A stretch of DNA of 64,000 bases from Vicinamibacteraceae bacterium (GCA_031407765.1 JANOIR010000077.1:219-64218); one strand, 5' to 3'. Shown: positions 3,860 to 62,990, numbered from the stretch's first letter. Notes: generated by a model from the sequence alone, not told the origin. Numbers and translations: made by a program.

Positions 3860-3879
3860 GAACTCGGTATCCTAGCAAC

Positions 3880-42100: not shown

Positions 42101-45100
42101 GTCGAAGCCGTCCTTTCCGGTCTCGCGAGCCAGATCACCAACGAGGCCGGCGCGCTCTACACGGCGACGTACGACACGGACCGCAACGCCCTGACGATCG
42201 TGAGCAAGGCGCGCACCAGCTTCGACACCCACCTGAGCCGCGGCACCTTCTCTAGCCCGGCGGCGAACTCCATCCAGACCGCCGAGCTCGCGTTCTCGTC
42301 GGCAAGCGGCGCAGCCGCCAACGACGTCTACACCCTCTCGCTCACGCAGTCGTCGGTCACCACGGTCTACAGCTACAAGGCGGCGGCCAACGACACGATC
42401 GCGACGATCCTGGGCGCCCTTGCCGGCGCGCTGCCCAGTGGCGCCACCGGTTTCACCAGCTACATCGATACGACGCGCGGCACGATAACCGTCGTGGACA
42501 ACGACGGCGGCGCCTTCAGCGTCTCGCTCAGCCAGGGCGCCTTCGCGACGACCGCGACGACGGAAGGCTGGACAGAGAGCGTGAAGCTGACCCAGGCGAC
42601 GATCACCAGCAATACGACGTTCACCGTGACCATCGGGACGGACACGATCAATACGACCGTCAACGCCTCGGGCGGCAGTCCGAAGACGGTGACCGATATC
42701 GCCACCGCGATCGCGGGGCAAATCGACGGCAGCGCCATCGGCAGTACGGGCAGCAACTACCGTGCCGTCGCCAACGGCGATGTCATCACGATCTTCACGA
42801 ACGCTTCGACCAGGACGCTCGGTGCGGTCAACATCACGGCGCCGGGCTCGGCTTCGATCGCCAGCGCCGCCGCCTACACCGAGACGTTCGAGCTCACAGG
42901 CTCGGTCGCTACCGGGAAGACCTGGAGCGTGGAACTCGGCGGCACCGTGTACAGCTATGCGGCACTGTCGTCGGATACCACGCTCGAGCTGGTCGCAACG
43001 GGCCTGCGCGGCGTGGTCAACGCGACTACTGCGTACGACGCCTACGTAGGCACGGCGAGCGGGAGTGCACGGACCGTGACCGTCAAGTCGGCCACGGCGA
43101 CGGCGTTCGCGACGGCGCACAACGTGACTTCGGTGACGGCGGCGGATGCCACAGCCGGCGGCTGGGCGGAAACCATCAAGCTCGATTCGGGCGCCACGAT
43201 CGCGGCGAACACGACCTGGGCGGTGTCCCTCGGTGGTTCGAGCGGCGCGCAGGAGAACTTCAGCGTGGTCCAGTCCGCGGCGACCGCCGACGCGACTGCT
43301 TCGGCTGCCGCCCGTGCCGCGCTGACCACCAGCCTCGTCTCGAAGATCAACACCTCGGGCTCCTACATCGCGCTCGTCACCGGCACCGACACCATCACGA
43401 TCATCCGCGAGAGCGGCACGACGGCGACCGACCAGAGGACCGCAGGGCAGACCACGCCGAGCGCCACCTGGGCGAACGCTTCGGTCTGGAGCGAGACTTA
43501 CGAACTCTCGACCGCTGGCACCGTCAACCAGTCGACCTGGGCGGTCGCCCTGCCGGGCGACGCCGCGGTCTACGCCGTCGCCGGCAGCACGCTCGCGATT
43601 GCGACATCCAACCTCGAGACGGCGATCGACGCCTCGAGCAACTACAAGGCCGCGGTCACGAGCACGAGCGCGTCGACGGGTCCGAACACGATCACGATCT
43701 TCAAGAACGCCATGACGGCCTTCGACGCCGGCACCGCGATCTCGACCGCCCAGCTTGCGGACGCCTCGGCTTGGACCGAAAGCTTCCTGCTCGAGGATGC
43801 GGTCCAGGACAACAGGACCTGGGCGGTTGCGCTGAATGACGGGACGGCGACGAGCGTCTTTGCCTACACAGCGGCGAACGGCTCGTCGAACATCACGACC
43901 GGGCTCGCCGGGACGGCGTCGGGAGGCTACCGCGCGATCGACTCGGGCAACGGCACGGTCACCTTCATCCGCACGAACGCTGCAACGCTGACGTCCTACA
44001 CCACAGCCGGCAATACGGCGACGCTGAATCCGACCTGGGTGCAGTCGGTGCTGGTGCGCAACCAGAACGACAGCGCCGACGCGGTCGTGGCGCGCGAGAC
44101 CTGGAAGCTGGACCTCGACACCAACCTGTACAGCTATGAAGCGGGTGTCGGCGGCCACGCGCTGACGCTGCTGAAGGTCGCGACCGAACTCACGACCACG
44201 GTGAACGGCGCCGGCAACTACGACGCGGCGCTCACTTCCGCGTCGGACAACACCTGGCACGTGATCACGGTGGCGCGCGAGGACGCGGCCGCCCTGGTCA
44301 CCACACCGAGCATCGACGGCGCGCCGACGCTGGCGACGCAGGCTGTGAGCGGCGACGTCAGGAACGCCTGGCGCCTGGAGCTCGACCTGGACAACAACAC
44401 GGTTTCGGGCGACACCTGGAGCGTGACGCTGGGCGGCACGAACGTGCTGGTCAACGGCGGCGGGAGCGCGGGCGACATCTCGGCGTTCACGACCGGAACC
44501 CTGGTGCCGGCGTTGACGGGCAACGGCTACTTGGTTACGACCACGAGCGCGGCGGCGGGCCAGGTCAGCATCTCGCTCGCTTCGGGCGCGCAGGTCACGG
44601 CCGACAAGATCGAGCACTTCAAGCGCCTGAAGAACCACGGCTTGACGACGAACCCGGCCTCTCCGATGACCGACCCGGCGCACTACACGCGCGCCGTGGT
44701 GGAGCTCGCGGGCGACGTGCGGGTGAACGACACCTGGACTATCAAGCTCAACGGCATCGAGTACACCGCCAAGGTCGCGCTCGGCGACAACATCAACGGC
44801 GTCGCGGAAAAGCTGAAGAACGCGATCCCCACCGGCCTGTACACGGTCACGCGCACCAACAGCACGCTCGACATCCGCGTCAACACCGCGACCGCCTGGT
44901 TCACCGGCTTCACGGTCGAGGCCTCGCAGGGCGGCGGCAAGGCGCAGGCCCTGTTCGATGTCGACAACGCCAACCTGGTGACGGGCCAGACGCGCGAGAC
45001 CCAGCTCGTGGAGCGCGACCGCCTGGTGCGCGACCCGTACAGCGGCGTCGAAACGATCATCAGAGAAACGGTGGAGGAGTACACGTATCACAGCTACGTG

Positions 45101-48100
45101 GACTACCTGACGCTCGGCCTGTACGATGAATCCGGCAGCCTGGTCGCGCGGATGAATCCGTTCCTGACCCCGGGCTACCTCGACCTCGGCAGCAAGGCCA
45201 ACAACTACTTCACGGTCGATTCGGGCGGCAACTACGTCCTCAACCAGGCGGTGGCCGACCCGCAGCTCTATTACGAGTTCACCGATCCGGACAAGAACTA
45301 CCAGATCCGGGCCGAGTCGTACCGCCACTACCTGGCCGCCAGCCCGTACAGCGACGGCTACCTCGGCGTGGTCTCCAGCGGCCAGTCCTACGACCTGGTG
45401 GTGGCGATCCAGAACCACGAAGTCAACCGCGAGGCGATTTCGCTGGTCGGCAAGACGATGACCTTCATGGACGGCACCGGCAAGGGCCAGAGCGCGAACG
45501 TGATCGCCTACGACCCGCTGACCAGCACCTACACGCTCGACAAGCAGCTCACCAACCCGTCGACCCTGCTCGTGGGTTCGGGCTTGACGACGGGCATGTT
45601 CTCGTCGTACCAGATCGATTACTCGATGCAGAGCGAGTTCCCGGGCTACTCGTCGAACTTCGACACCTTCGAAGTGGTGCTCACCGGCCGGCCGGGCGAC
45701 GTCACCACGGTCGACGTGGTGCCGCAGGTGACCGGCAGCTACAACTCCGACAAGGCCTTCTCGGCGCGTGACGGCTACGGCCTGCACGAGGCGGTGCAGG
45801 TCGACGTCGCGACGCCGCAGGCGAAGATCAAGCTCGCGTACGTCGACGCTGCGGGCAACGCGGTCACGAGCGTCGCAGGCGTCGAGACCTGGGTGCTGAC
45901 CCTGGGCGGTACGACGCTGGCGGAATCGACCTTCAGCTCCGCGACCGTCGCCGGGACCACGTTGACGGCCATCGCGACGGACCTGATCACGCAGGTCAAC
46001 CTGGCGAACATCGGCTACGTCGCGAGCAACGTTGGCGAGAACATCCTCCTGACCCGCTACAACGGCGACCGCCAGTCCTTCGTCGCCAAGCTCGCGGTGA
46101 AGGTCGGCAGCGGTTCGAGCGCGGTGCCCGATACCAAGGGCGCGATCGGGATCACCCAGTCGGACGCCAACAAGCAGCTGACCATCAGCCTCACCGGCGA
46201 GCCGCGGGTCGGCGAAGACTGGAAGGTCACGATCACGTCCGGCGCGTTCACCAGGACCTACACGCAGGCGGTCGGATTCGGCGACGAACTCGCCGACATC
46301 GCCGAGCACCTGAGCGCGCAGATCAAGGCCGAGAGCAGCGTCAACTTCCGCACGCTGCTCAAAGGGCGCGAGATCGTCGTCACGCGCGTGGACGGCGGCG
46401 TGATCACGTCCGCCAGCGCCGCGATCACCCCGGACAGCCGCGGCAGCGCCGCGGTCACCGCACAGCTCGTGTTCTCGAACGTGAACGGGGCCCTGAACGC
46501 CTGGAACATCCCCCAGAAAGTCGTCGTCACCGCGGTGGACGACCAGGTGATCGAGGGCGGCGACCTGAAGGTGTTCCCGGCGATGGACGAGCACGTGAAC
46601 CGCATCCGCGGGCCGCTCGTGATCCAGGGCGGCATCATCCACACCGAGGACAACGCCCTGCGCAATCCGTTCATGCTGCCGGGCGAGAACAACAACCCGC
46701 TGATCGAAGGCAGCACCACCGCCGACGCGGCGTCCGCCGGTAACACCCTCACCGACATCAACGCGGTGCACTACGACCCGCTGCGCGGCCAGATGCCGGG
46801 CTTCGACCCGCGCATGGACACCAGCACCACGGGCTTCCTCTACGACATGACCGTGGTGACCGGCGTCGGCACCGGCATCACGCAGCACGTCGAGGCGCTC
46901 ACCGGCACCGGCGTCGCGATCAAGTCCGAGACGCTCGGCACGGCGTTCTCCGCCTCGATCAGCGTCACCAGAAGCGATGGCGTCACTGTCGGCACGGGCT
47001 CCGGCACCATCAGCGGCACGGGTACTTCGGCCACCACGTACTCGAATGCGACGCTGGTGCTCGAAGGCGCGGTGTTCAAGGGCCAGGAATGGAGCATCCG
47101 GCTCAACGGCAGCACCGGCCCGACCTACACCTACATTGCGGGCTCGCGCCCCGGCGGTGGGCCGACCGACGATGTGCTCACACTGGACGTGGTGGCGCAA
47201 CGCCTCGCCCAGCTCATCAATGCGACCCCGCCGGCCGGCGTCGCGGCGACTACCGGCACCTCCATGCTCAAGCTGACCAGCACCACCGGCGTGAGTATCG
47301 ACGTGCTGAAGGGGCGCGCGCGCCTGAGCGATACGATCGCCACCGGCGCCACAAACTGGGAGCTGGCCCAGATCCAGCTGGCCGGTTCCCCTATCGACGG
47401 CTCCGTTACCGCGGGCGATCGCTGGAAGATTACGCTCGGTACCGCGGACTTCGTCTACATCGTTTCGGCCGGCGACACCCTCGCCAAGGTCGCGCGCGGG
47501 CTCGCCGACCAGGTCGACCAGGCGCTCGCCTACCACGCCGACGTCAAGCTCGACACGGTGCGGTTCACCTCGACGTGGGGCGCGGCGCTGACGAGCGGCA
47601 CCGGCTACTTCATCAGCCCGGTCAACAGCAACATCCTGGCGGTCGAAGCCGACCAGGTGGACGTGCTCAACGTCTACAACCGCAACAGCGTCTCGAACGA
47701 CGTCGGCACGCTGACCGAGAACCGGCTCTACGGCTTGGGCATGGGCCCGGACAGCGTGGTCGGCGGCAAGGCGATGAACGGCGGCATCACTTACGCCGGC
47801 CTGGAGCAGGTCAATCTCAGGCTGGGCTCGGGCAACGACCACATCGTCGTCGAGTCGACCCATCAGGGCGCCACGACGATCAGCGGCGCGGCGGGCGACG
47901 ATTGGATCGAAGTGAAGAAGGTGTCGGGCCACACCACGCTCGACCTTGGCACCAGCGTGACCACCGGCAACCGGGTGGACGTGGGCAGCGCCGACAATCG
48001 CGTCGACCAGGTCACGGGCCTCCTCGACATCATCGGCGGCGTCCAGGTGGTCAACCAGGCGCCGACCACGGTGCAGCTCGACACGGTCAACGTCAACGAC

Positions 48101-51100
48101 TCGGGCGACACCAACGCCAACACCGGCACTCTCACCGCCACGACGCTGACCGGGCTCGACATGGCCTCGGTCGAGGAAATCCAGCTGGTGCGCGTGCAGG
48201 CCAAGTCGGGCACCTTCCGCCTCACTTACACGACGCCGAACGCGACGCCGCTGCCGGTTCCGGTGACCTTCACGCAGGCCGATTTCGCGACCGCGGGCGT
48301 CGCCGCGGGCAAGGTGCAGGCCGCGCTGCGCAGCCTGTACGACAACACGACCGACATTCTCGTATTCGAAGACAGCCGCGAGGCGCTGGACGACGGCGTG
48401 CACGCCGTGACCTACAGGGTGGTGTTCACCGGCAATCTCGCCGGCCGCAACATGGAAGAGATCATCTGGGGCGAGACGCGCGCGGCGGCGGCGGCGACGC
48501 TGCAGGCCTTCGCGGGCGAGTCGATCGACGTCGGCGTCACGACGCTGCGCCAGGGCACCCCGACGCCCGCGATCGGCAACGTGCAGACGGTGACCGTCAA
48601 CGGCGCCGGCAGCTTCACGCTTACGATCAATGTTCCGGTTCCTGGCGGCACCCCGCTGCAGACCACGCAGACCACTGCTTCGATCCTGGTCGGCGCCTCG
48701 GCGGACGAGGTGCTCAAGATCCTCGACCTTATCCTCAACCCGAACGGCTCTGTCCTCGATCCGCTGAACGATCGCAACGACAACTCGAAGCCATACACGA
48801 ACAACGTCGCCGTCACGAAGGTCGGCAACGTCTACACGATCGCATTCCAGGGCGAGCATCGCGCCAAGGCGATCGTCGCCACCACCGGCAGCGTCGAAGT
48901 CGCCACGCGCACCAGCGGCATCAACTACTACGGCCTCAATACCCTCAATGTGACGCTCGGCTCGGGCGCGGATATCTTCAACGTCCAGGGCACGAGCGCG
49001 ATCACCAACCTGAAGACCGCCGGCGGCAACGACCAGGTCTTCGTCTCCTCGAGCGCCAATGTGCAGACCGACAGCGTGGTGACGCTGCGCAGCGGCGATC
49101 CGGCGGTCCTGGGATACAGCCTGGCCGAAGCGGCCGTGTCGGTCGTCATCGAAGTCAGGAACTCGAGCGGCGCGGTCGTGAAGTCCTTCACCCTTGGCCA
49201 GACGGCGGCGGGCGCCTATTCGCAGGCCTGGGACGGAACCGACACCCTGGGGCAAGCGGTAGCCGCAGGCACCTACACCTACTCGGTGACTGGCGTGCGC
49301 TCGACTGGCGCGCTGACGCAGGCCTCCGGCGACACGCCCGCGCTGGCCTTCAGCCTGGCAGAGGCGGCGGATTCGGTCAGCGTCGTCGTGAAGGATGCGA
49401 CCGGAGCCGTGGTCAAGACCATCGCTCTGGGCGTTACTGCCATAGGCGCGCACGCGCCGGTATGGGACGGCACGAATGCGGCGGGGGTGCTGGCGCCCTC
49501 GGGCCGATACACCTACACGGTGACCGCTACGCGCGCCAACGCGACGACCTTCGCCGGAATTGTCTCGACGTTCGCCGGCGTCGCAACGACGGCCAACGTA
49601 TCCGGGTTCCTGGCCGGCAACACCTTCGCCTTCCGGGGCGAAGGGGGCCATGCGCCGGCGCTGACGTATGAACTGTCGGCTGGCGTTGCCCAGGCCCTGG
49701 TCAAAATCTACGACACGACCGGAACGCTGGTGCGCACCATGACGGTGAATTCGCCGGCTGCCGGAACGCACACCACCACCTGGGACGGCAAAAACGAGAC
49801 GAACCAGCGCCTTGCGGCCGGCACTTACACCTACCAGGTGACCAATGCGCTTGGCGCGATCATCGGCACCACCGCCATGAACGGCACGCTGGACGCGGTG
49901 AACGGCCTGCTTAATATTGACTCGGGCAGCGGCACGAACGCGCTGATGGTGAGCGACGCGGGCTCGCGCGCGCCCAACACGGCGACCCTGAGCAACAGCC
50001 AGATCCTCGGCCTTGCCTCGGCCAACATCAATTACGTGGCTACCGCGAGCGCGCGCAACCTCGCCGGCACCGTTGTCGACACGCTCGGCGCCACGGGAAC
50101 CTTCGCCGGCGGCATCACGGTGTGGAGCGGCTACGGCGTCGACAACGTGACGGTCGCCAGCACCCGCCTTGAGACCGACGCGACGAAGCGGACGATCACG
50201 ACCCTGAACACGGGGCTGGGCGGCGATACCGTCGCCGTGAGGCTGGACGCCGTTGCCGGCTTGCCGGGCGACGGGATCGCGGACGGATTCTTCGCGCTGA
50301 ACACGCAGGGGCCGTTCGACCACGATTTCCTCGTCGGCCCCGCGCTCGGCGCCGACGACGACAAGGTCGACGCCAGCCTGTCGTCGCTGCCGCTCGTCAT
50401 CTTCGGCGGCCAGGGCAAGGATGAGATCGTCGGCGGCAGCGGCAACGACATCATCTTCGGCGACCGCGGCCGCGTGGAGTACACCGATTCCAGCGGCGCG
50501 GTGGTGCAGGTGCTCGGCTGGGGCGGCCTGGGCGACAGGACCGACGGCCTCGTTCACCTGGGCGGCGTCGCTCGCTCGGTGAACCTCGAGGTGGGCGCGA
50601 ACGACTACATCGATGGCGGCGAAGGGCGCAACGTCGTGATCGGCGGCAAGAATGGCGGCGGCGCGCTGCTCCATGCGGCGGCCGGCAGCTACGACGGTGA
50701 CTACCTGTGGGTCGGATCCGGCAACGACGTCGTGCTGGGCGACAACGGCCGGGTAGCGTTCAACGCGGCCGGCGACGTAACGCGCCTGGAGACCACGGAC
50801 GTCGATGCCTCGACTGGCGGCAACGACACGATCCGCGCCGGCGAGGGGGACAACCGGATTCTCGGCGGGATGGGCGTCGACACGATCACAGTGGGCAGCG
50901 GGAAAGACGCCATTCTGGGCGACAACGGCTTCATGCAGATGGACGTCAACGGCGGCAATTTCGAGACAATCGCCACGAACTCGCTCGCCTCGACGGGCGG
51001 CAGCGCCACCAGCCTGGGCGACGCGGACATCATCACGGGCCAGGACGGCAAGAAGATCGTGCTGGGCGGCGACGGTGGCGACACGATCAAGCTGGGCGAT

Positions 51101-54100
51101 GGCACGGCCGGGGTGAACGAGCACATCGTGCTGGGCGACAACGGGGTGGTGACCTTCGTGCCGCTGAGCGCGGGCGTGGCTGGCGGCGCGGGCAAGGTCC
51201 TGAGCTACGAGACAACCGACACGGTGGCGGGCACGGGCGGCATCGACCGGATCACGCTGGGCGATGGCACGGCGACGATCCTGGGCGGGATGCACGGCGA
51301 CATCATCATCACCGACACCGGCACGACGGTCGGTGGCGACGGGGCGGACACGATCCTGGGCGACAACGGCCTGGTGCAGATGGACATCCAGGGCGGCAAC
51401 TACGCGCTGATCGAGACCAAGTCGCTGGCCTCGACCGATCCGACGAGCCTGATCACGAGCCTGGGCGGGGACGACCAGATCACCACGGGCGATGGCAAGA
51501 AGATCGTGCTGGGCGGCGACGGGTTCGACCAGGTGACGATGGGCGCGGGCGATCACATCGTGCTGGGCGACAACGGCATCGTGACGTTCGTGCCGCTCAG
51601 CGCGGGCGTGGCCGGTGGCGCGGGCAACGCGCAGAAGTTCGAGACGACGGACACGCTGGACATCAGCTCGGTCGGCGGCACGGGCGATCGGGACAACATC
51701 ACGATCACGGGCAACGGCAACAACACGATCCTGGGCGGCATGGGGGTCGACACGATCATCCTGCAGAGCAACGTCGCGGGCGGCGCGGACGTGGTGCTGG
51801 GCGACAACGGCGTGGTGGAGATGGACGCGAAGGGCGTGAACTTCGCGCAGGTCACGACCAAGTCGTTGACCTCGGCCGGTGGCGGGACGGCGGACCAGGG
51901 CGCGGGGGATATCATCACGGCGCTCGACGGCAAGAAGATCGTGCTGGGCGGCGATGGCGGGGACACGATCAGGCTGGGCGATGGCACGGCGGGGACGAAC
52001 GAGCACATCGTGCTGGGCGACAACGGCTCGGTGACGTTCGTGCCGATGCTCGATGGGCTGGGCAACCCGAGCGTCGGCGCGGGCAAGGCGCTGAGCTTCA
52101 AGACCACGGATACGGTGCAGGCGACCGGCGGCATTGACCGCATCACGGTGGGCGACGGTACGGCGACGATCCTGGGCGGGATGCACGGGGACTTCATCAC
52201 CATCGATACGGGCACGGCGCCGGGCGCAGACGGGGCCGACACCATCCTTGGCGACAACGGCCTCGTGCAGATGGACACCCAGGGCGGCAACTACGCCCAG
52301 ATCACGACCTACTCCCTGGACTCGGCGGGTGGTGGCGTGGATGAGCTGGGCGGCGCCGACCAGATCGTGACCGGCGACGGCGCGAAGACCATCCTCGCTG
52401 GCGACGGCGGTGACACAGTCACCATGGGCGAGGGCACTCATACCGTTCTGGGCGACAACGGCAGCATCGGCTACGTCGCCCTGGGCCAGACCGGCGCCGG
52501 GAACATCCTGACGATCGAGACCGCGGATACGCTTGCGGCCACCGGCGGCAACGACCAGATCAACTCCGCCAATGGCACCAACGTGATCCTCGCCGGCATG
52601 GGGGCCGACACGGTCACCACCGCCGACGGCAGCGACATGATCCTCGGCGACAACGGCAGCGTGCAGATGGACGCCGCCGGCCAGGTGTTCCGCCAAGTGG
52701 ACAGCACGGAGACGCTGCAGGGCACCGGCGACGCGATCACCGCTGGCAACGGCGCGAAGACCGTCGTGGCCGGTTTCGGCGACGACACGGTCGATGTCGG
52801 CACCGGCACGCACACGCTGCTCGGCGACAACGGCAGCCTCAGCTACGGCCCGACCGGCATCCTTTCGTACGTCACGACCACCGAGCCAACCCGGGGCGGC
52901 GATGACGCGATCGAAGCCGCCGGCGGCGATACGCTGGTCATCGCGGGCCTGGGAGACGACACCGTCACCACGGGCGCGGGCGTGGACGTGGTGGTGGGCG
53001 ACGACGGCCGGATGTCCTTCGACGCGGCCGGGCGCCCCGCGATGGTGGAATCCACCCAGCCCGGCATCGGCGGCACGGACACCATCCATTCGGGCGAAGG
53101 CAACAATGTCCTGATCGGCGGCTTCGGGCCCGACAGCCTGGTTTCGGGCGGCGGAGTCGACATGCTCATGGGCGACGGCGGCCGCGTCACCTACGCCGGC
53201 GGGGCGCTCTACCTGGTGGAGAGCATCGATTCCTTCATCGGTTCGAGCGACTTCCTCGATGGCGGCGCAGGCCAGAACGTCCTGATCGCCGGCGACGGCG
53301 ACGACGTGATGGTTGGCGACCTCACCAACGACATCCTCGCGGGCGATTACGCCGCCGTGACCTTTGACGCTTCCGGCCACGTGACGTCGGTGATGCGCTT
53401 CGGCGGCCTGGGCGACCTGATCGCGCAGGTGCAGGACAGCCTGTTCACCTACACGCGTCCCGACGACGCGGCAGCGGCGGACCCGCAGGTGTATCGCGGC
53501 AATCTCATCCTGATCGGCGACGCGGCGAGCGAGCTCCGGCGCCTGTACGTGCTTGGCGACTACCTGTCTCTGCCGGTCTTCTCCGGGTTCGATTTCGCGG
53601 CGGCCCAGGCCCAGCACCACAGCAGCTCGAGCGTGGCCTCCCAGCCGGCCTCCTCGGCGACCCCCGGCAGCGAGTCCGGAGCCCCCGCGAGCGAGCCGGG
53701 TGCCGCCCCTGCCGGCGAGGAAGGGCAGGGCGAGCAAGGCGGGCAAGGTCCGGCCGAAGGCGCGCAAGAGGGCACGCCGTCCGCGGCAACGTCGAATGAA
53801 TTCGGCGGCGACAGCACCGGCCTGCAGATACTGGAACTGCCGCAGGTCGAAGGGAACGCGGCCGGCAGCTTTACGCTCGGCACCACTGGCCAGTCGACGC
53901 GCGACCAGCCGACGCGAGACCAAGCGGATCGGCAGCAACTGGCGCTCGCCGGCCTGGTCGGCGCGCAGGCCTGGTATGGCCGCCGGCAGGAGAGTTCCGC
54001 GCCGCGCATGACGGGCGCCACGACGGCGACGTCCGCGGGCAACAGGGGCGCCTGGATCCGGCCCGCCGGAGAAGCCGCGGCCGCGGGCGAGGTCATGCTC

Positions 54101-54361: not shown

Positions 54362-54697
54362 ATGGCCACCAAGAACCCCGCCTCGGGCGAAGCCTCTACG
54401 CTTGATACCGCGAAGCGCAACATCGATCCACAGAGAGTCGTCTGGGATGATTCGCGGCTGAACACCTCATACTCGAACGTCTGCAACGTTCTCGGCTCGC
54501 GCGAGGAGATCACGCTGCTGTTCGGCGCCAACCAGGCCTGGCATTCCGGCCAGAAGGAAGTAAAGGTCATGCTCTCGGACCGGATCATCCTCAACCCCTA
54601 TGCGGCCAAGCGGCTGCAGGCCCTGCTGCAGCGGGTCCTGAAGGAGTACGAAACCCGCTTCGGCGAACTGAAGATCGAGGGCTCAGCGCAGAGCTGA
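54362..54697 (+). CDS. Small DUF3467-like protein (111 aa)
   Basis: ATG preceded by AAGGAG at 54351-54356. The core YSNVCNVLGSREEITLLFG...VKVMLSDRIILNPYAAKRLQALLQRVLKEYETRFGEL resembles the DUF3467 consensus as I recall it. No signal peptide or TM segment. Confidence 0.6.
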   Translation: MATKNPASGEASTLDTAKRNIDPQRVVWDDSRLNTSYSNVCNVLGSREEITLLFGANQAWHSGQKEVKVMLSDRIILNPYAAKRLQALLQRVLKEYETRFGELKIEGSAQS

Positions 54698-54713: not shown

Positions 54714-56558
54714 ATGCCGGGTTCCGCCCTCGAGGAAACCGCCTCCGCGCTGAGTGCCGGGGACGCGCTCTGGCGGCAGCATGCCGCGGCGCAGTCCTCG
54801 GATGCCTACCTCAGGAGCTGGCTCGCGCTGCAGTGCTCCATGGTCGCGGGCGCCGCGCGCGGCGTGCTGCTGCTCGGCGCCCCCGATGCGGGGCCCTATG
54901 CGCCGGCGGCATTCTGGCCGGCGGCGCAGAACGCGAGCCCGCTGCTGGCCGATATCTCCAGCCGCACGCTGGAGGCTCGCCGCGGCATCGCGATGCAGGG
55001 CGCTCCGTACGCGGCGGTGAGCTGTCCCCTGATCTTCGAAGGGCAGTTGCACGGCCTGGTGGCCGTCGAACTCGCGCCGCAGCCGGACGCCGCGCTGCAG
55101 GAGGTGGTGCGGCAGCTGCAGTGGGGCCTGTATGCGGTGGAATGCGCGTTGCGCGGCGAGCAAGCGCGCCACGAGCACGGGACGCGCGAGCGCCTCATGG
55201 CCACCCTCGACCTGGTGGCTTCCGCGCTCGCGGAGGACGGCTTCCAGGCCTCCGCCCAGGCGCTCGCGACCGACCTCGCGGTACGCCTGGATTGCGACCG
55301 GGTCAGCATCGGCTTCGAGCGCGACGGCCATGCCCGCGTCGTGGCCGTGTCGCACAGCGCCGAGTTCGGCGAGCGCATGAACCTGATCCGGGCGATCGGC
55401 ACCGCCATGGACGAGTCCCTGGACCAGAAATCCATCATCGTGCTGCCGCAGGGCGACGGCGAGGCGCTGGTGACGCGCGACCACGAGGCGCTGGCGCGGC
55501 TCTTCGGCAGCGGCAGCGTGCTCACGGTGCCTTTTTCCGTGGGAGAGACCACCAAGGGGGCGTTCAATTTCGAGCGCCCGGCGGGGCGCCCGTTCGAGGC
55601 CGACACGGTCGAGCTGACGCAGGCGGTGGTCGCGCTGGGCAGCCGCATCCTCGAGGAAAAGCGGCTGAACGACCGGCTGCTGGTGAGCCGCGTCAAGGAT
55701 ATCGCGCGCGAGCAACTGGAGAAATTCATCGGCCCGCGCCATTTCGGCCGCAAGCTTGCCGCGGCGCTCGTCATGCTTGCCGCGATCTTCTTCAGCTTCG
55801 CGACCGGCGAGCACCGCGTCGGGGCGAGCGCCGCGCTCGAGGGGGCGGTGCGCCGCGTCCTGGTGGCGCCCTTCGACGGCTACGTCGCGAGCGCGACGCA
55901 CCGCGCGGGCGACATCGTTCCGGCCGGAACCGTGCTGGCCAGCCTCGACCAGCGCGACCTGAAGCTCGAGTACTACAAGTGGGCGAGCCAGCAGAGCCAG
56001 TATGCGCGCCAGTACCAGGAAGCCATGGCCAAGCACGACCGTGCCCAGGCCAACATCCTGCTTGCGCAGGTGCAGCAGGCAGAGGCGCAGATGAACCTAC
56101 TTGCCGAGCACCTCGGCAGGGCGCAGATCACCGCGCCCTTCGAAGGTCTGGTGGTGAGCGGCGACCTGCACCAGTCGCTGGGCGCCTCGGTGAAGCGCGG
56201 CCAGACGCTGTTCGAGATTTCGCCCCTGAACGCCTTTCGCGTGGTGCTCGAGGTGGACGAGACGGACATCGACAGCGTGGCGACCGGGCAGAAGGGAGCC
56301 CTGCAGCTCAGTTCGATCCCCGGCGAAGTCTTTCCATTCACCGTCAGCCAGCTGACGCCGATCGTCGCATCGCGCGAGGGACGCAGCTATTTCCGCGTCG
56401 AGGCGCTGCTCGAGAGGGCGCCGGAGGGCGCCGCGGGGCGGCTGCGCCCCGGCATGGAGGGCGTCGCCAAGATCGAGGCCGGGCGCCGCAAGCTGATCTG
56501 GATCGGCACCCACAAGATGCTCGACTGGGCGCGGCTCACCCTTTGGTCCTGGCTCTAG
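54714..56558 (+). CDS. Tandem GAF-like domains + single TM + HlyD-type membrane fusion (periplasmic adaptor) protein
   Basis: 614 aa. The N-terminal ~330 aa contains two GAF-like units (LIFEGQLHGLVAVEL; RVSIGFERDGHARVVAVSHSAEF...VPFSVGETTKGAFNFER). TM helix LAAALVMLAAIFFSFA. Then lipoyl/coiled-coil/beta-barrel adaptor motifs (VLVAPFDGYVASATHRAGDIVPAGTVLASLD; ITAPFEGLVVSGD...VKRGQTLFEI; FRVVLEVDETDI). Confidence 0.8.
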   Translation: MPGSALEETASALSAGDALWRQHAAAQSSDAYLRSWLALQCSMVAGAARGVLLLGAPDAGPYAPAAFWPAAQNASPLLADISSRTLEARRGIAMQGAPYAAVSCPLIFEGQLHGLVAVELAPQPDAALQEVVRQLQWGLYAVECALRGEQARHEHGTRERLMATLDLVASALAEDGFQASAQALATDLAVRLDCDRVSIGFERDGHARVVAVSHSAEFGERMNLIRAIGTAMDESLDQKSIIVLPQGDGEALVTRDHEALARLFGSGSVLTVPFSVGETTKGAFNFERPAGRPFEADTVELTQAVVALGSRILEEKRLNDRLLVSRVKDIAREQLEKFIGPRHFGRKLAAALVMLAAIFFSFATGEHRVGASAALEGAVRRVLVAPFDGYVASATHRAGDIVPAGTVLASLDQRDLKLEYYKWASQQSQYARQYQEAMAKHDRAQANILLAQVQQAEAQMNLLAEHLGRAQITAPFEGLVVSGDLHQSLGASVKRGQTLFEISPLNAFRVVLEVDETDIDSVATGQKGALQLSSIPGEVFPFTVSQLTPIVASREGRSYFRVEALLERAPEGAAGRLRPGMEGVAKIEAGRRKLIWIGTHKMLDWARLTLWSWL

Positions 56559-56593: not shown

Positions 56594-58744
56594 ATGAGCA
56601 GCCCGTCGCTGTTCAGCTCCTCCTGGTACCGGGTCGCGGGCCTTCGCCCTCGACTGCGCAGCCACGCGCAGGTCCACCGCCACGTGTACCGGGGCGCGGT
56701 GTGGTACGTGATGCAGAATCACACCACCGGCAAGTTTCACCGCTTTACCCCGATCGCCAACCTGATCATTGGCCTGATGGACGGCAAGCGCACGGTCCAG
56801 GAGATCTGGGACCTTGCCTGCGTGCGCCTCGGCGACGAGGTGCCCTCCCAGGACGAAGCCATCAAGCTGCTTGCGGACCTGCACGCCGCGGACGTCCTGC
56901 AGGGTGACGCGCCCCCCGACCTGAACGAACTGCAGCAGCGCCGGCGCAAGCACGTGCGCACGCGCTGGAAGCAGTATCTGGGCAATCCGCTGTCGATGCG
57001 TTTCCCGCTGTTCGATCCGGACTGGATGCTGCAGCGGCTGTTGCCGCTGCTCGCGCCGCTGTTCGGTCGGGTGGGCGCGCTGCTGTGGCTCGGGGTCGTC
57101 GGCTGCGCCCTTGTCCTGATCGCGATGCACTGGAGAGAACTCTCGAGCGACGTGGTCGACCGCGTATTCTCGGTGGAGAACCTGCTGCTCATCTGGATAG
57201 TTTTCCCGCTCATCAAGCTGCTGCACGAACTCGGACACGCGCTCGCGACCAAGGCCATCGGCGGTGAAGTGCATGAGATGGGCGTCATGCTGCTGGTGCT
57301 GATACCCATCCCGTACGTCGACGCCTCCGCCGCGACCGCGTTCCGCGACCGGCGCAGCCGCGCGCTGGTCGGTGCGGCCGGCATGATCGTGGAGCTTTTC
57401 ATCGCCGCCCTCGCGGTGTTCGCCTGGGTGCACCTCGAGCCTGGCATGGCCCGGGCGATCGCCTACGACGTGATCCTGGTCGCGGGCGTGTCGACGCTGC
57501 TGTTCAACGCCAATCCGCTGCTGCGCTACGACGGCTACTACATTCTCGCCGACAGCCTGGAGATCCCGAACCTCGGACAGCGCTCCAACGACTACCTGGG
57601 TTACCTGGTGAACCGGTACCTCTTCGGCGTCGAAGGCGGCACCTCGCCGATCGCCGCGCCGGGCGAGCGCGGCTGGTTCGTCGGTTACGCGATCGGCTCG
57701 TTCATCTATCGCATGTTCATGATGGTTTCGATCGCGGTGCTGGTGGCCACGCAGTTCTTCGTGCTGGGCGTGCTACTGGCCATCTGGGCCTGTGTCAGCA
57801 TGCTGCTGCTGCCCGTGGCGAAGAAGATCCATTACCTCTTCTACAGCCCGCGGCTCGCCAGCCACCGGCAGCGCGCGGTGCTGGTCAGCACCGGCGGCGT
57901 CGGCCTGCTTGTCGCTGCGCTGCTGTGGCTGCCCGCGCCCTCGTCCACGAGGGCCGAGGGCGTGATCTGGGCGCCGGAGCAGGCGCAGGTGCGCGCCACC
58001 GTCGACGGGTTCGTGACCAAGGTTCTCGCGAAGCCGGATCAGGCGGTGCGCGAGGGCGATGTCCTGATCGAAAGCCAGGATCCGGAGCTGTCCGCGCGCA
58101 CCGGCGTGCTGCAGGCGCAGCTCGCGGAGCTCGACGCGCGCTACTCGGCGGCGATCACCGGCAACCGGGTGCAGGCCGGGGTCATCAACGAGCAGCGAAC
58201 TCACGTGATGGAGGCGCTCGGCCTCGCGCAGCGACGCCAGGAGGACTTGCTGGTGCGCAGCCCCGGCAACGGACTATTCGTGATCCAGGACCCGCAGAAC
58301 CTGCCCGGCCGCTATGCCCAGCGCGGAGAGGTGCTCGCCTACGTCACCGATCGGGCAGCCCGTTCCGTGCGCGTGGTGGTGTCCCAGTCCGAGGGCGCGC
58401 TCGTCAGCAAGCGCACCGAGCGCGTGGAGATCCGCCCGGCCGACCGCGTGAGCCGGCCGATCCAGGCGCGCATCGAGCGCGAAGTGCCCGCGGCGACGGA
58501 CGAATTGCCCAGCATGACGCTCAGCCTGCAGGGCGGCGGCAAGATCGGGCTCGATCCGGCCCGGCCGGGCGACGGCAGATCGCTGGAGAAGCTGTTCGTG
58601 CTGGACCTCGAGCTGCCGCAGGGCGAGCAGACGAACTACCTCGGCGGACGCGTCTACGTGCGCTTCGAGCATGAGCCCGAGCCGCTTGCCAGCCAGTGGT
58701 ACCGCGACCTGCGGCGCGCTTTCCTGAAGAAGTTCAATGTCTGA
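56594..58744 (+). CDS. PqqD-like (RRE-like) N-terminal domain + M50/site-2-protease-type membrane metalloprotease + C-terminal HlyD-type adaptor domain
   Basis: 716 aa. HELGH at 57224-57238 within a hydrophobic segment. Second S2P motif NANPLLRYDGYY at 57506-57541. Multiple TM helices. N-terminal FHRFTPIANLIIGLMDGKRTVQEIWDLACVRLGDEVPSQDEAIKLLADLHAADVL resembles PqqD/RiPP-recognition elements. C-terminal VRATVDGFVTKVLAKPDQAVREGDVLIESQDPEL plus coiled coil resembles the HlyD lipoyl/hairpin region. Confidence 0.8.
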   Translation: MSSPSLFSSSWYRVAGLRPRLRSHAQVHRHVYRGAVWYVMQNHTTGKFHRFTPIANLIIGLMDGKRTVQEIWDLACVRLGDEVPSQDEAIKLLADLHAADVLQGDAPPDLNELQQRRRKHVRTRWKQYLGNPLSMRFPLFDPDWMLQRLLPLLAPLFGRVGALLWLGVVGCALVLIAMHWRELSSDVVDRVFSVENLLLIWIVFPLIKLLHELGHALATKAIGGEVHEMGVMLLVLIPIPYVDASAATAFRDRRSRALVGAAGMIVELFIAALAVFAWVHLEPGMARAIAYDVILVAGVSTLLFNANPLLRYDGYYILADSLEIPNLGQRSNDYLGYLVNRYLFGVEGGTSPIAAPGERGWFVGYAIGSFIYRMFMMVSIAVLVATQFFVLGVLLAIWACVSMLLLPVAKKIHYLFYSPRLASHRQRAVLVSTGGVGLLVAALLWLPAPSSTRAEGVIWAPEQAQVRATVDGFVTKVLAKPDQAVREGDVLIESQDPELSARTGVLQAQLAELDARYSAAITGNRVQAGVINEQRTHVMEALGLAQRRQEDLLVRSPGNGLFVIQDPQNLPGRYAQRGEVLAYVTDRAARSVRVVVSQSEGALVSKRTERVEIRPADRVSRPIQARIEREVPAATDELPSMTLSLQGGGKIGLDPARPGDGRSLEKLFVLDLELPQGEQTNYLGGRVYVRFEHEPEPLASQWYRDLRRAFLKKFNV

Positions 58745-60731
58745 CGTACTCGCCGCGCCGCGCGCCTTCGACGAGCTCTACGCCGAGCGGCGCGAGCTGG
58801 CCGGCGAGCAATGGCTGGACCGCGCCGGCACGGCCGTCGCCGGACGCCTGACGCGCGCGATGCGCGCGCGTCCAGCGCGCGTCGATTTCATCGTCGGCGC
58901 GGTGGCCGCGGTCGAGGCGCGCTACCGCGGGCTGGACGTCGCCCGGCTCGCCGAAGAGGCGCGCGAGCTCAAGCGCCGGCTGCGGCGGGACGGTTTGCGC
59001 GATGCGCTGGTGGCGGAGGCCTTCGCGCTGGTGCGCGAAGCCTCGGACCGCGTTCTGGGCATGCGCCACTTCGACGTGCAGCTGAAGGGCGCCTGGATCA
59101 TGCTGAACGGCATGGTCGCCGAGATGCAGACCGGCGAGGGCAAGACGCTGACCGCCACGCTGGCCGCCTGCACGGCGGCGCTGGCGGGTATCCCGGTGCA
59201 CGTGGTCACCGTCAACGACTATCTCGTGGCGCGGGACTGCGAGACGCTGCGGCCGGTCTACGAGGCGCTCGGCATCACGGTGGCGGCGGCGACCGAGGAA
59301 ATGACGCCGCAGGAGCGCCGGGCGTCATACGCCTGCGACGTCGCGTATTGCACCAATAAGACCCTGGTGTTCGATTACCTGCGCGACCGGATACTGCTGG
59401 CGACGGGCGCGAGCACGCTGCACCTGCGGCTGGAGAAGATCTACGGGCCGGATTCCCGCAGCCGCCGCCTGCACCTGCGCGGCCTGCATTTCGCGATCGT
59501 CGACGAGGCCGACAGCGTGCTGATCGACGAGGCCCGCACCCCGCTCATCATTTCCGCGGAAGTGCCGCCGGGCGACGAGGCGGCAGTGGCTGCGCAGGCC
59601 CTGGCGATCGCCCGGGGCCTGGCGCTCGGCGCGGATTTCGTCATCGTCATCGCCGAGCGCAGGGTCGCGCTGACCGAGACGGGCCACGCAAAGGTGGTCG
59701 AACTGTGCAAGGAACTGGGCGGCGTCTGGGCGGGCTCGCTCAGGCGCGAGGAACTGGTCACTCAGGCGCTGAGCGCGCTGCACCTGTTCCTGCGCGACGA
59801 CCACTACGTGGTGCGCGAGGGCAAGATCCAGGTCGTCGACGAGCACACCGGGCGGGTGATGGCCGACCGCTCCTGGGGCCAGGGACTGCACCAGTTGATC
59901 GAGGCGAAGGAGGGCTGCGAGATCACGCCGCGCAAGGAAACGCTCGCCAAGATCAGCTACCAGCGGTTTTTCCGGCGCTACCTTCACCTGTCCGGGATGA
60001 CCGGTACCGGTTCCGAGGTGGCCGGGGAACTCGGGTCGGTCTACGGCCTGCCGGTGGTGCGCGTCCCGACGCACCGGCCCGGCCGGCGCCTGCGCGAGGT
60101 GGATCGCATCTTCGAGACGGAAGAAGAGAAATGGAATCGCATCGCGGAACGGGTCGCCGAGCTGCACGCCAAGGGCGTGCCGATCCTGCTGGGCACGCGT
60201 TCGGTGGCGTCCTCCGAGATCGCGAGCCGGCTGCTCGAGCAGCGCGGCCTCGCGCACCGCGTGCTGAACGCCAAGCAGGACGAGGAAGAGGCGCAGATCG
60301 TCGAGCGCGCGGGCGAGGCGGGCGCGATCACGATCGCGACCAACATGGCGGGCCGCGGCACCGACATCAAGCTCGCGCCAGGCGTCGCCGAACTGGGCGG
60401 GCTGCACGTGATTCTGTCGGAGCGGCACGAGGCCGGGCGCATCGATCGCCAGCTGGAAGGGCGCTGTTCCCGCCAGGGGGATCCGGGGCACTTCGAGGCC
60501 ATCATTTCCCTCGAGGACCCGGTGCTCGAGCCCTACCGCGGGGGCCTGCCGGAACTGCTGATGCGCCGGCTCGCCGCGCTCAGGCCCGGCGCGGCCCAGG
60601 AAGTGAAGCGGCGCTGGATCCGACTCGCCCAGCTGCGCACCGAACGCGCGCAGTCGAAGGTGCGCCGCAATCTGCTGAAGACCGACAAGCAGACTGGCGA
60701 TATCCTCTCGTTCTCCGGCAGGCCGGAATGA
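58737..60731 (+). CDS. SecA-family ATPase paralogue, C-terminally shortened (664 aa)
   Basis: SecA motor signatures: MRHFDVQL, Walker A MQTGEGKTL (59124-59150), VVTVNDYLA/V, IVDEADSVLIDEARTPLIIS (about 59495), YQRFFRRY..LSGMTGTG, TNMAGRGTDIKL (about 60338-60374), GGLHVILSERHEAGRIDRQLEGRCSRQGDPG. Only about 100 aa follow the last motor motif, whereas several hundred follow in housekeeping SecA. The start overlaps the upstream stop (ATGTCTGA). Confidence 0.85.
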   Translation: MSDVLAAPRAFDELYAERRELAGEQWLDRAGTAVAGRLTRAMRARPARVDFIVGAVAAVEARYRGLDVARLAEEARELKRRLRRDGLRDALVAEAFALVREASDRVLGMRHFDVQLKGAWIMLNGMVAEMQTGEGKTLTATLAACTAALAGIPVHVVTVNDYLVARDCETLRPVYEALGITVAAATEEMTPQERRASYACDVAYCTNKTLVFDYLRDRILLATGASTLHLRLEKIYGPDSRSRRLHLRGLHFAIVDEADSVLIDEARTPLIISAEVPPGDEAAVAAQALAIARGLALGADFVIVIAERRVALTETGHAKVVELCKELGGVWAGSLRREELVTQALSALHLFLRDDHYVVREGKIQVVDEHTGRVMADRSWGQGLHQLIEAKEGCEITPRKETLAKISYQRFFRRYLHLSGMTGTGSEVAGELGSVYGLPVVRVPTHRPGRRLREVDRIFETEEEKWNRIAERVAELHAKGVPILLGTRSVASSEIASRLLEQRGLAHRVLNAKQDEEEAQIVERAGEAGAITIATNMAGRGTDIKLAPGVAELGGLHVILSERHEAGRIDRQLEGRCSRQGDPGHFEAIISLEDPVLEPYRGGLPELLMRRLAALRPGAAQEVKRRWIRLAQLRTERAQSKVRRNLLKTDKQTGDILSFSGRPE

Positions 60732-60747: not shown

Positions 60748-61566
60748 ATGAACCGTGGGACCGCCCTTTTCCTGCTTGCGTCGCTTGCAGCAGCCGTTTC
60801 TCCTGCGAACGCCCAGGCCCCGCAGCGTCCCGCTGCGCTCAAACCGGAGGCGGTCCCGTTCACCCCGGTGCGTCCGCCGATGGCCAGCGGCAACGCCGGC
60901 AAGCAATTCGGCGATGACATGGATTGCCTGGTGGAGCCGCACATCGTCACAAGCGTCGGAAGCCCCGTGGAAGGCACACTCGCGGAAGTGCTCGTGGACC
61001 GGGGCTCGCTCGTCTCCAGGGGACAGGTCGTCGCCCGCTTGAACTCGAAAGTGGAGGAGGCCACAGTCAACCTGAAGGCGGCGCAGGAGGATTTCGGCAA
61101 GCGCAAGGTGGACCGCAACGAGGAGCTTTACAAGAAGCAGCTCATCTCCGCCAACGAGAAGGACGAACTGGAGACGCAGACGCGCATCGCGGGCCTGGAG
61201 CTGCAGCAGCAAAGGCAGGTGCTGGAGCAGCGCACCATCCGCAGCCCTTTGAACGGCGTCGTGGTCGAGCGCATGCTCAGCCCGGGCGAGCGCGTCGGCG
61301 ACGGCAAGATCGTGAAGATCGCCCAGATCGACCCGCTGAACGTGGAGGTCGTCGCGCCGGTGGAGATGTTCGGCCGGGTGAAGCCCGGCATGGCGGGCGA
61401 AGTCCGCTTCCAGCCGCTGCTGCAGGGGACCTTCAAGGCGACCGTGACGGTCGTCGACCGTGTCGTGGACGCGGCCAGCGGCACCTTTGGCGTACGCCTG
61501 CGGCTGCCCAATCCGAACAGCACGGTGCCGGCCGGCATCAAGTGCAGCGTCCGATTCCTCAAGTAG
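60748..61566 (+). CDS. Periplasmic adaptor (membrane fusion protein, RND/MFP family) with a cleavable signal peptide
   Basis: 272 aa. AGGAG RBS at 60737-60741. Signal peptide MNRGTALFLLASLAAAVSPANA/QAP. Lipoyl-like VGSPVEGTLAEVLVDRGSLVSRGQVVARLNS. Coiled-coil hairpin. IRSPLNGVVVERMLSPGERV. Beta-barrel segment VEVVAPVEMFGRVKPGMAGEVRF...ASGTFGVRLRLPN. Confidence 0.8.
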   Translation: MNRGTALFLLASLAAAVSPANAQAPQRPAALKPEAVPFTPVRPPMASGNAGKQFGDDMDCLVEPHIVTSVGSPVEGTLAEVLVDRGSLVSRGQVVARLNSKVEEATVNLKAAQEDFGKRKVDRNEELYKKQLISANEKDELETQTRIAGLELQQQRQVLEQRTIRSPLNGVVVERMLSPGERVGDGKIVKIAQIDPLNVEVVAPVEMFGRVKPGMAGEVRFQPLLQGTFKATVTVVDRVVDAASGTFGVRLRLPNPNSTVPAGIKCSVRFLK

Positions 61567-62911: not shown

Positions 62912-62990
62912 GCGCAGGCCTTGATCGTGGTCAAGGCCGGACGCGGGCCGGCTCTCTCACAATGCGTCGTCCAAAATTGGGGAGCACCGC

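Follow-up and report, generated by a model that had tools for sequence, protein, structure and literature searches.

The role ascribed to SecA is that of motor for the SecYEG translocon, and export machines built from TolC and membrane fusion proteins (MFPs) are regarded as being driven by ATP-binding cassette (ABC), resistance-nodulation-division (RND) or major facilitator superfamily (MFS) transporters. In accessory SecA2 systems, a SecA paralogue seems to be dedicated to special, very large or unusual cargo, as with the large serine-rich-repeat adhesins exported by SecA2/SecY2 (aSec), and in type I secretion systems (T1SS; HlyBD-TolC, LapBCE) a TolC factor and HlyD-type adaptors are combined with giant cargo that carries repeats-in-toxin (RTX) sequences and no Sec signal peptide. 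It has been reported that SecA_DEAD modules with a preprotein cross-linking domain (PPXD), lacking scaffold and wing, lie inside giant proteins of Omnitrophota and Actinobacteria and were proposed to export them, and that the hosts also have a normal SecA (10.1101/2023.11.21.568195). In 'Chlorochromatium aggregatum', proteins of 36,806 and 20,647 aa carry N-terminal LEPRxLL domains, and the authors proposed a sap-like T1SS (10.64898/2026.03.19.712371). The present analysis concerns an operon in a 64,000-nucleotide stretch of DNA from a Vicinamibacteraceae bacterium (GCA_031407765.1, JANOIR010000077.1:219-64218; the whole stretch is called the window below, and coordinates are counted from its first letter), which encodes a SecA paralogue of reduced length (short SecA). 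The operon suggests an undescribed route of giant-protein export, and short SecA is probably the dedicated ATPase of a conserved, envelope-spanning exporter for giant LEPR-XLL proteins that operates outside the housekeeping Sec pathway. If so, a trimmed SecA with three adaptors, a leader protease and TolC, and with no ABC transporter, would break both of the rules given at the outset and constitute a new export route. No description of the short SecA family or of the operon was found in the literature, where the two preprints cited above deal with neighbouring themes. The genes of the operon and the parts of short SecA are located as follows.

6895..7752, plus strand: SapC family protein (Pfam SapC, E 5e-72); its stop codon overlaps the TolC start (TAG/GTG, 7750-7752)
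7752..9104, plus strand: TolC-family outer-membrane factor (Pfam OEP, 2 repeats, E 9e-43)
9122..54280, plus strand: open reading frame (ORF) of the giant protein, 15,052 aa from the TTG at 9122, with a probable ATG start at 9140; proposed cargo
9224..9289, plus strand: LEPR-XLL leader of the giant protein, RRKAMFEALEQRFMLSAE, residues 35-56 (NCBIfam NF012209, 25.4 bits against a cutoff of 17)
54362..54697, plus strand: DUF3467 protein, 111 aa (Pfam PF11950, E 4e-24), with a strong ribosome-binding site
54714..56558, plus strand: MFP with a GAF domain, GAF-MFP (Pfam GAF, E 5e-10; HlyD_3, E 4e-20)
56594..58744, plus strand: fusion of a PqqD-like RiPP recognition element (RRE), an M50 protease and an MFP, M50-MFP (Pfam PqqD, Peptidase_M50 and HlyD matches)
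58737..60731, plus strand: short SecA, ATG start, 664 aa, with nucleotide-binding domain 1 (NBD1), PPXD, NBD2 and the first scaffold helix
58737..58877, plus strand: family-specific N-terminal extension of short SecA, residues 1-47, with a conserved YPER; residues 25-47 are the short-specific segment relative to canonical SecA
59421..59477, plus strand: family-specific NBD1 insertion of 19 aa, residues 229-247, shortly before the DEAD box
59586..59903, plus strand: PPXD (preprotein cross-linking, clamp), residues 284-389 (Pfam SecA_PP_bind, model positions 5-110 of 110, E 5e-24)
60585..60692, plus strand: first helix of the helical scaffold domain, residues 617-652; a long helix in the AlphaFold2 (AF2) model, with the conserved pattern AQxxxExxxxxxRxxLLxxDxQ
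60693..60728, plus strand: C-terminal tail with the final residues LSFSGRPE (LAFSGxxE in the family consensus), conserved and modelled with low confidence
60748..61566, plus strand: third MFP, 272 aa (Pfam HlyD_D23, E 4e-20; TIGR01730, 113.8 against a cutoff of 94.9)

The motor of short SecA is complete. Direct reading of the translation places MQTGEGKTL at residues 130-138, VDEADSVLIDEARTPLIIS at 255-273, TNMAGRGTDIKL at 535-546 and ERHEAGRIDRQLEGRCSRQGDPG at 562-584, which are the four motor motifs that an earlier note on this DNA had quoted for the gene. The DEAD-type NBD1 and NBD2 retain Walker A, the DEAD box and motifs III, V and VI; Pfam SecA_DEAD matches residues 47-432 (E 1e-101), and P-loop_SecA is matched with E 4e-53. 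The insert that had been described as PPXD-like does lie between the motor motifs and is recognised as a PPXD by SecA_PP_bind. With housekeeping SecA (TIGR00963/NF009538), short SecA thus has in common the ATPase motifs of NBD1/NBD2, the PPXD clamp, the first scaffold helix and the fold, whereas it differs in having no wing, finger/IRA1 or SEC-C region and in having its own N-terminus, NBD1 insertion and LAFSGxxE tail. Furthermore, housekeeping SecA is a stand-alone gene, while short SecA is encoded together with MFP, M50 and TolC genes.

The extent of the C-terminal loss was defined by several comparisons. Pfam SecA_SW (PF07516; wing, scaffold and two-helix finger/IRA1) and SEC-C (PF02810; zinc tail) gave no match in short SecA; the canonical Acidovorax SecA, used as positive control, gave E 1e-67 and E 4e-10, respectively. 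The chain aligns to residues 18-599 of B. subtilis SecA and ends 80 aa beyond the last motor motif (the earlier note had the total of 664 aa right, but put this distance at about 100 aa). In an alignment of short SecAs with 69 canonical SecAs, the columns specific to the canonical proteins began right where the first scaffold helix ends. Short SecA thus keeps this helix and has neither wing domain nor two-helix finger/IRA1, nor the C-terminal linker that carries the zinc finger; the previously proposed absence of most of the C-terminal region stands for the wing, the finger and the zinc tail, but has to be amended for the helix at residues 617-652. The SEC-C zinc tail binds SecB and the ribosome and is common in Proteobacteria, and its loss agrees with the suggestion that short SecA would not dock to SecB in the normal way. 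An inability to dock to SecYEG, which had also been suggested, is plausible from the absence of the two-helix finger and the divergence of the N-terminus.

In the AF2 model of short SecA (pLDDT 81, pTM 0.75), one long helix and then a 12-residue tail of low confidence form the C-terminal end. The high-scoring Foldseek matches of the model were SecA structures exclusively, and it superposed best on SecA bound to SecY and engaged with substrate (6ITC, TMq 0.79; 5EUL, TMq 0.77). The engineered truncation SecA-N68 (5K9T) was also among the matches. Like short SecA, SecA-N68 consists of NBD1-PPXD-NBD2 without the C-domain; however, it is a laboratory fragment without a scaffold helix, whereas the natural short SecA has the helix and conserved terminal motifs. 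In the N-terminal extension, the first 25 or so residues were modelled with low confidence (mean pLDDT 46-62 for the first three 10-residue blocks) and residues 26-43 as helical. More than 70% of short SecAs, and less than 20% of canonical ones, have the 19-aa NBD1 insertion, which corresponds to a gap in the alignment with B. subtilis SecA. The tail residues 654-664 have pLDDT below 50, and the conserved tail is probably disordered in view of this model. In the tail, alignment A2 shows no variation at L657, F659, G661 and E664, and conservation of G661 in A1 reaches at least 90%; the LAFSGxxE tail is a candidate docking motif.

An ordinary secA, cut short as a pseudogene or by an error of sequencing or assembly, would account for the short length and for nothing else, and is hardly conceivable given the relatives of the protein. 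Almost all of the 120 best relatives (61-85% identical) are 650-708 aa long. In a library clustered at 50% identity, relatives of about 660 aa formed at least 150 clusters, of which the best 150 representatives, with 42-57% identity, nearly all have lengths of 645-690 aa. Among metagenomic SecAs with a complete 3' end, 48/48 stop within 0-3 residues of the last residue of the window protein. In short SecA alignments, the C-terminal consensus AQxxxExxxxxxRxxLLxxDxQxxxxLAFSGxxE and the N-terminal YPER are conserved, and the ATPase residues show little or no variation throughout the family. Length and C-terminal motif are therefore kept over these clusters and several phyla, and the complete genomes of cultured Achromobacter species also carry the protein. 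Since the relatives share the length and the complete copies share the end, short SecA is not a frameshifted secA, and the frameshift or stop artefact at about 60731 that had been considered earlier is ruled out.

Short SecA also forms a lineage of its own. In a neighbour-joining tree, 46 short SecAs were split from 69 canonical SecAs with bootstrap support of 100/100, and short SecA falls outside housekeeping SecA, where its placement had been held possible. The cross-phylum short-SecA loci and the canonical outgroup of this tree were supplied by a contig scan with the short-SecA alignment, which also matched canonical SecA; about 12 of the 80 loci listed by that scan were of the short type. 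Identity between short SecA and SecA from many phyla is about 40-44%. The scores of short SecA are below the NCBIfam equivalog cutoffs for SecA (NF009538, 612.6 against 814; TIGR00963, 596.3 against 800) and below all four for SecA2 (TIGR03714, 493.7 against 930; TIGR04221, 440.4 against 725; TIGR04397, 546.2 against 1085; NF012136, 410.3 against 1100). Because the wing/finger region is absent, the model scores are below the cutoffs and the tree places it apart, short SecA, which works like a SecA motor, is yet outside the curated SecA and SecA2 families. SecA2 likewise seems to serve very large cargo, but keeps the scaffold and finger region (770-780-aa chains), which short SecA does not. SecA2 of the aSec type is furthermore found in the setting of secY2/asp; the setting here is that of Gram-negative Proteobacteria and Planctomycetes with MFPs, an M50 protease and TolC; no secY2/asp genes were found in the window or in related loci.

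A second, smaller clade of short SecAs was observed in Planctomycetes (L072 9692-11875; L073 1623-3596). Its members, of about 657-707 aa, also end after the first scaffold helix, have the tail MGQDPYLD and are without an adjacent M50-MFP. A LEPR-XLL protein (CALEPLEERQLLS) is encoded at 4846-7962 in L073, 1.2 kb downstream of the short SecA of this clade.

The surroundings of short SecA are conserved across phyla. The cluster was found in Alpha-, Beta- and Gammaproteobacteria and in Planctomycetes, with a core set in the order DUF3467, GAF-MFP, RRE(PqqD)-M50-MFP, short SecA as the fourth gene and a periplasmic MFP, often accompanied by TolC and SapC. Two betaproteobacterial contigs encode a giant (15,258 and 9,292 aa), a small ORF (DUF3467), GAF-MFP, a 715-aa M50-MFP, short SecA and an MFP. 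In the window, the M50-MFP gene overlaps the start of short SecA by 8 nt (ATGTCTGA), as expected from the translational coupling claimed previously, and an 8-nt overlap is also present in both of these contigs. By tblastn, the same order was found in Achromobacter piechaudii NBRC 102461 (L005), two gammaproteobacterial metagenome-assembled genomes (MAGs) and MAGs of Planctomycetaceae, Tepidisphaerales and Phycisphaerales; the loci with conserved order are L001, L002, L005 and L006 and, in Planctomycetes, L007, L008 and L017.

In a reverse test, metagenomes were scanned with the M50-MFP alignment, which gave 80 loci; those with at least 500 bp of flanking sequence were taken as informative. Short SecA is directly downstream of M50-MFP in 65/68 informative loci, and GAF-MFP directly upstream in 64/66. 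DUF3467 was present in 26 of the 80 loci (also in L001, L002, L017 and Methylosinus), the third MFP in 42 and SapC in 5 (also on an Alisedimentitalea plasmid). TolC belongs to the core operon or adjoins it in L102, L103, L112, L114, L155 and the Methylosinus plasmid pMSC49a. The distinct clade neighbouring MFP/M50 genes, whose existence the earlier note had left to be checked, is the separate clan described above, adjacent to M50-MFP in nearly every informative locus. The view of short SecA as a specialised accessory motor in partnership with M50-MFP is supported by this clan, by the scores below the curated cutoffs, by the adjacency and by the plasmid-borne copies described below. Beyond that view, short SecA belongs to a conserved apparatus with TolC, three MFPs and DUF3467 beside giant LEPR-XLL proteins.

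Exact-sequence look-up placed the Achromobacter short SecA (657 aa) in A. piechaudii, A. kerstersii, A. spanius and A. pestifer, and the M50-MFP protein additionally in A. xylosoxidans, A. marplatensis and A. anxifer. The pair of short SecA and M50-MFP is also found on plasmids or chromids of Methylosinus, Sinorhizobium, Ensifer adhaerens, Mesorhizobium, Rhizobium and several Rhodobacterales; as PLSDB includes mislabelled chromosomes with a canonical secA, which makes plain counts of SecA on plasmids uninformative, the 12 top tblastn records that also carry M50-MFP were used here. On pMSC49a of Methylosinus sp. C49, an 8,847-aa giant, DUF3467, MFP, PqqD/M50, short SecA, MFP and TolC stand in one row, and the Alisedimentitalea plasmid encodes SapC, an 8,148-aa 'calcium-binding protein', HlyD, 'peptidase M50' and SecA. 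Such plasmid-borne copies (Methylosinus, Alisedimentitalea) suggest that short SecA is an additional SecA and not the essential one. The hosts thus include cultivable and genetically tractable bacteria, namely Achromobacter spp., Ensifer adhaerens, Rhizobium and Mesorhizobium, besides the Methylosinus plasmids.

Current annotation hides the system. In public records, homologues of short SecA are named 'preprotein translocase subunit SecA', 'prepilin peptidase' (pMSC49a) or 'DEAD/DEAH box helicase', and M50-MFP is named 'efflux RND transporter periplasmic adaptor subunit', 'PqqD family protein', 'site-2 protease family protein', 'putative peptide zinc metalloprotease' or 'hypothetical protein'. 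Two candidate fusion proteins were set aside and do not count as evidence of partnership. In P0250 (993 aa, metagenomic), a SecA motor whose NBD2 is cut short is joined to an HlyD-type adaptor; either short SecA and the downstream MFP are naturally fused in it, or it arose from faulty assembly or gene calling. The other, P0208, has SecA_SW and is a SecA of the long kind.

The other products of the operon extend from the cytoplasm to the outer membrane. By transmembrane (TM) prediction, GAF-MFP crosses the membrane once, at residues 348-366, with a cytoplasmic GAF part ahead of this helix (about residues 1-345) and an HlyD-type domain in the periplasm. M50-MFP has the RRE at about residues 19-130, about 8 TM helices between 152 and 446 and a periplasmic MFP domain at 450-716, with the motifs HExxH at 211-215 and NPLLRYDG at 307-314. 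From Betaproteobacteria to Planctomycetes, its M50 residues H211, E212, H215, N305, N307, P308 and D313 (the last four within NxNPLLRYDG) do not vary. The third MFP has a cleavable Sec-type signal peptide (SPANA/Q) and is a soluble periplasmic adaptor; among the three MFP domains in the operon, it is the only one that passes a curated cutoff (TIGR01730). For the TolC-family gene, the GTG at 7752 is the likely start and is followed by a signal-peptide-like segment. No ABC transporter (ABC_tran) was found in any window ORF outside the giant gene, nor in the annotated plasmid operons (Methylosinus, Alisedimentitalea). As in T1SS, a TolC factor and HlyD-type adaptors are encoded beside an RTX giant, and SapC lies near the operon as in the Campylobacter sapCDEF locus; unlike in T1SS, a SecA-type motor is present instead of an ABC transporter, and there are three MFPs, one with GAF and one with RRE-M50.

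The giant gene is uninterrupted and occupies about 70% of the window, with a GC content at third codon positions of 0.90-0.95 along all 45 kb. Its product contains DUF4347, many RTX nonapeptide repeats and FlgD-Ig (Pfam, NCBIfam) and a single cysteine in its entire length. The N-terminus has a K/R-rich stretch ahead of the LEPR-XLL motif and lacks the hydrophobic core of a signal peptide. A further 13 large ORFs next to the system also have LEPR-XLL at the N-terminus, with the pattern of a K/R-rich stretch and then [F/L]ExLE(P/E/Q)RxLL(S/A)(A)(D/E). Such N-termini number ten per about 1.0 Mb of system loci against one per 1.3 Mb of canonical-SecA loci, and that sole case (L013, Isosphaeraceae) lies beside a DUF3467 gene. 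The Methylosinus giant begins with RRAKIIFDTLEPRVLLNAD. In Alisedimentitalea, VVEQLEPRLLLAAD lies just upstream of the annotated start of the giant (WP_343211605.1), and this start appears to have been placed downstream of the LEPR-XLL motif. The position of the conserved element also differs from T1SS, in which the targeting signal is C-terminal and stays uncleaved, whereas LEPR-XLL is N-terminal.

The two reports on giants compare with the present case as follows. In Omnitrophota and Actinobacteria, the motor is fused into the giant beside TM segments and near T2SS-like genes (10.1101/2023.11.21.568195), whereas here a free-standing motor of about 660 aa is encoded in a fixed MFP/M50/TolC operon with LEPR-XLL proteins as the proposed cargo. 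In 'Chlorochromatium aggregatum', sapC and tolC flank the giants in an arrangement as in the window; a horizontally acquired secA, Cag_1676, is within the co-expression cluster, together with Cag_663 and Cag_665, and the M50-MFP/short-SecA module is not mentioned (10.64898/2026.03.19.712371).

From these observations we infer the physical contacts between the proteins, the identity of the inner-membrane conduit, the cleavage of the leader, the direction of transport and the role of the giant as cargo, in the following way. The giant, which has no hydrophobic signal peptide, would use its basic stretch and LEPR-XLL as leader, and this leader would be captured by the cytoplasmic PqqD-like RRE of M50-MFP. 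Short SecA would be held at the membrane complex, probably via the YPER N-terminus, the LAFSGxxE tail and the NBD1 insertion, and its PPXD would clamp the unfolded chain, which would be fed from N to C at the expense of ATP, possibly during translation. The M50 intramembrane metalloprotease would cut off the leader. GAF-MFP, M50-MFP and the soluble third MFP would form a bridge to the TolC-like channel, through which the chain would leave the cell directly, and extracellular Ca2+ would fold the RTX repeats and prevent back-sliding, as in type I secretion. The GAF domain would probably gate or regulate the process, and DUF3467 may act as chaperone or adaptor. For a protein of 15,000 residues, a start of export during translation would be an advantage. 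The stronger form of this proposal, namely that a SecA motor replaces the ABC transporter in a new one-step class of diderm secretion, in which the RRE reads a cleavable LEPR-XLL leader on giants of up to at least 15,000 aa and thereby allows N-to-C and possibly co-translational export, has in our judgement a little less than an even chance of being right. The proposal offers a testable answer to the question how giant LEPR-XLL proteins without a recognisable signal leave the cell, and, if true, it would explain the export of LEPRxLL giants such as the symbiosis proteins of 20,000-36,000 aa in Chlorobium chlorochromatii and many giants of Planctomycetes.

Several points weigh against the proposed exporter. 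The functional links between its components are all drawn from gene neighbourhood, and the coexistence of short SecA with a canonical secA is implied indirectly, by the plasmid-borne and Achromobacter copies. TolC was within reach in 5/80 metagenome loci only, giant genes often displacing it past the flank, and in three Planctomycete loci no LEPR-XLL gene was found within 10 kb. DUF3467 had no significant match in PDB by phmmer or profile search; its alignment with E. coli SecB by hhalign had a probability of 0.2% and covered a 14-residue ILxPYA segment, and its AF2 model (pLDDT 46, shallow alignment) is unusable. The two-helix finger, which is the pushing element in power-stroke models, is missing from short SecA, and force generation is therefore hard to explain. 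Finally, the operon encodes no obvious protein-conducting channel, and neither the M50 domain (about 8 TM helices) nor a single MFP anchor is known to form one, so that SecYEG may still be needed.

The last point leads to the main rival explanation, in which short SecA is a SecA2-like motor that recognises the LEPR-XLL giant and drives it through the housekeeping SecYEG to the periplasm, M50 trims the leader there, and the MFPs and TolC bring the chain over the outer membrane in a second step. Besides the absence of an alternative channel protein in the operon, it is favoured by the retention of the PPXD and the first scaffold helix, both of which contact SecY in SecA-SecY structures, by the superposition of the AF2 model on SecY-engaged SecA (6ITC and 5EUL), and by the SecA2-only systems of mycobacteria, Listeria and C. 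difficile, which act through SecYEG. However, short SecA lacks the finger that SecA inserts into SecY and has the family-specific extension in place of the canonical N-terminal region, coupling to the M50-MFP gene is near-absolute while no secY2-type gene accompanies it, and the conformation of an AF2 model is no evidence of a partner. Moreover, TolC/MFP systems normally receive their substrate from an inner-membrane partner and not from SecYEG. On balance, we consider the SecYEG route unlikely, though it deserves more weight than the remaining alternatives.

It is also possible to dispense with translocation by short SecA altogether. The protein would then be a cytoplasmic unfoldase, holdase or leader-presenting ATPase that holds the nascent giant in an unfolded state and feeds its leader to RRE-M50, and transport would be achieved in some other way, such as Ca2+-dependent folding outside the cell or an unlinked ABC transporter. 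The domains related to translocation, finger and wing, are indeed absent, the RTX repeats of the cargo could act as a ratchet, and the engineered SecA-N68 truncation retains a deregulated ATPase. Nevertheless, the PPXD clamp is conserved and the gene is set among envelope-spanning components, no ABC transporter was found in any examined operon, and the T1SS signal is C-terminal while the conserved tag here is N-terminal; such a non-translocase role is thus an improbable one, and short SecA as the motor of a dedicated exporter remains the preferred reading.

A further explanation concerns the M50-MFP protein, whose RRE and HExxH protease are typical of pathways for ribosomally synthesised and post-translationally modified peptides (RiPPs). 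Residues 19-405 match NCBIfam daptide_HExxH (NF041824) with E 1e-46, and the YydH/LiaK model (NF058609) also matches; the leader peptidases of these systems have likewise a PqqD-like RRE followed by an M50-type HExxH...NPxxxDG protease. The operon could accordingly serve the maturation and export of a small modified peptide, the giant gene being merely adjacent, and the window does contain a block of tailoring-type genes at 1686-6741:

1686-2342: 2OG-Fe(II) oxygenase
2339-3859, minus strand: tryptophan halogenase
3880-4911: O-methyltransferase
4908-5762: 284-aa protein of no family (hyp284)
5749-6741: radical SAM enzyme

The trio of methyltransferase, hyp284 and radical SAM is found downstream of the export operon in Actimicrobium antarcticum as well (L002 13432-16236). 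In the 80 metagenome loci, however, methyltransferase, radical SAM and hyp284 occur in none, and they are also absent from the plasmid operons, so the tailoring genes are lineage-specific and the RiPP explanation was downgraded. In addition, the daptide model scores 159.7 against a cutoff of 300, no conserved precursor ORF with a variable core was found, DUF3467 being evenly conserved, and LEPR-XLL giants rather than small ORFs recur beside the system. The M50 module differs from RiPP leader peptidases in being below the cutoff, in its fused C-terminal MFP and in the lack of conserved tailoring enzymes, and its likely substrate is the leader of an 8,000-15,000-aa protein, in contrast to the small peptide of RiPP systems. 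A RiPP pathway is for these reasons a very improbable interpretation.

The DUF3467 protein is conserved evenly along its full length, with no variable core. Its 120 best relatives listed are 72-92% identical, against the 61-85% found for the neighbouring SecA, and this level is unusual for a small protein of an uncharacterised family. A SecB-like identity was considered and is unsupported by hhalign; the role of DUF3467 as chaperone or adaptor is speculation. In an Isosphaeraceae MAG (L013 9875-19892), a 1,219-aa canonical-type SecA, a 479-aa ORF, DUF3467 and a 1,300-aa protein with LEERQVL are encoded together, a hint that DUF3467 may accompany LEPR-XLL proteins also where short SecA is absent. 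Between the stop of the giant gene and DUF3467, at 54306-54324 on the plus strand, there is a GC-rich stem-loop with a T-rich run, which may be an attenuating terminator that sets the transcript ratio of cargo to machinery. A promoter and terminator scan gave nothing beyond chance expectation, stem-loop-type sites included.

Other genes of the window are these:

14-1675, plus strand: molybdopterin oxidoreductase, C-terminal part, unrelated to the export operon
about 62300-62911: P-loop kinase-like gene, between the export operon and the formate-tetrahydrofolate ligase gene
62990-64000, plus strand: formate-tetrahydrofolate ligase, N-terminal part

Homologues of the P-loop kinase-like gene follow the operon in L001, L002 and L149. 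A 297-aa ORF on the minus strand (62931-63824) is an antisense shadow of the ligase gene.

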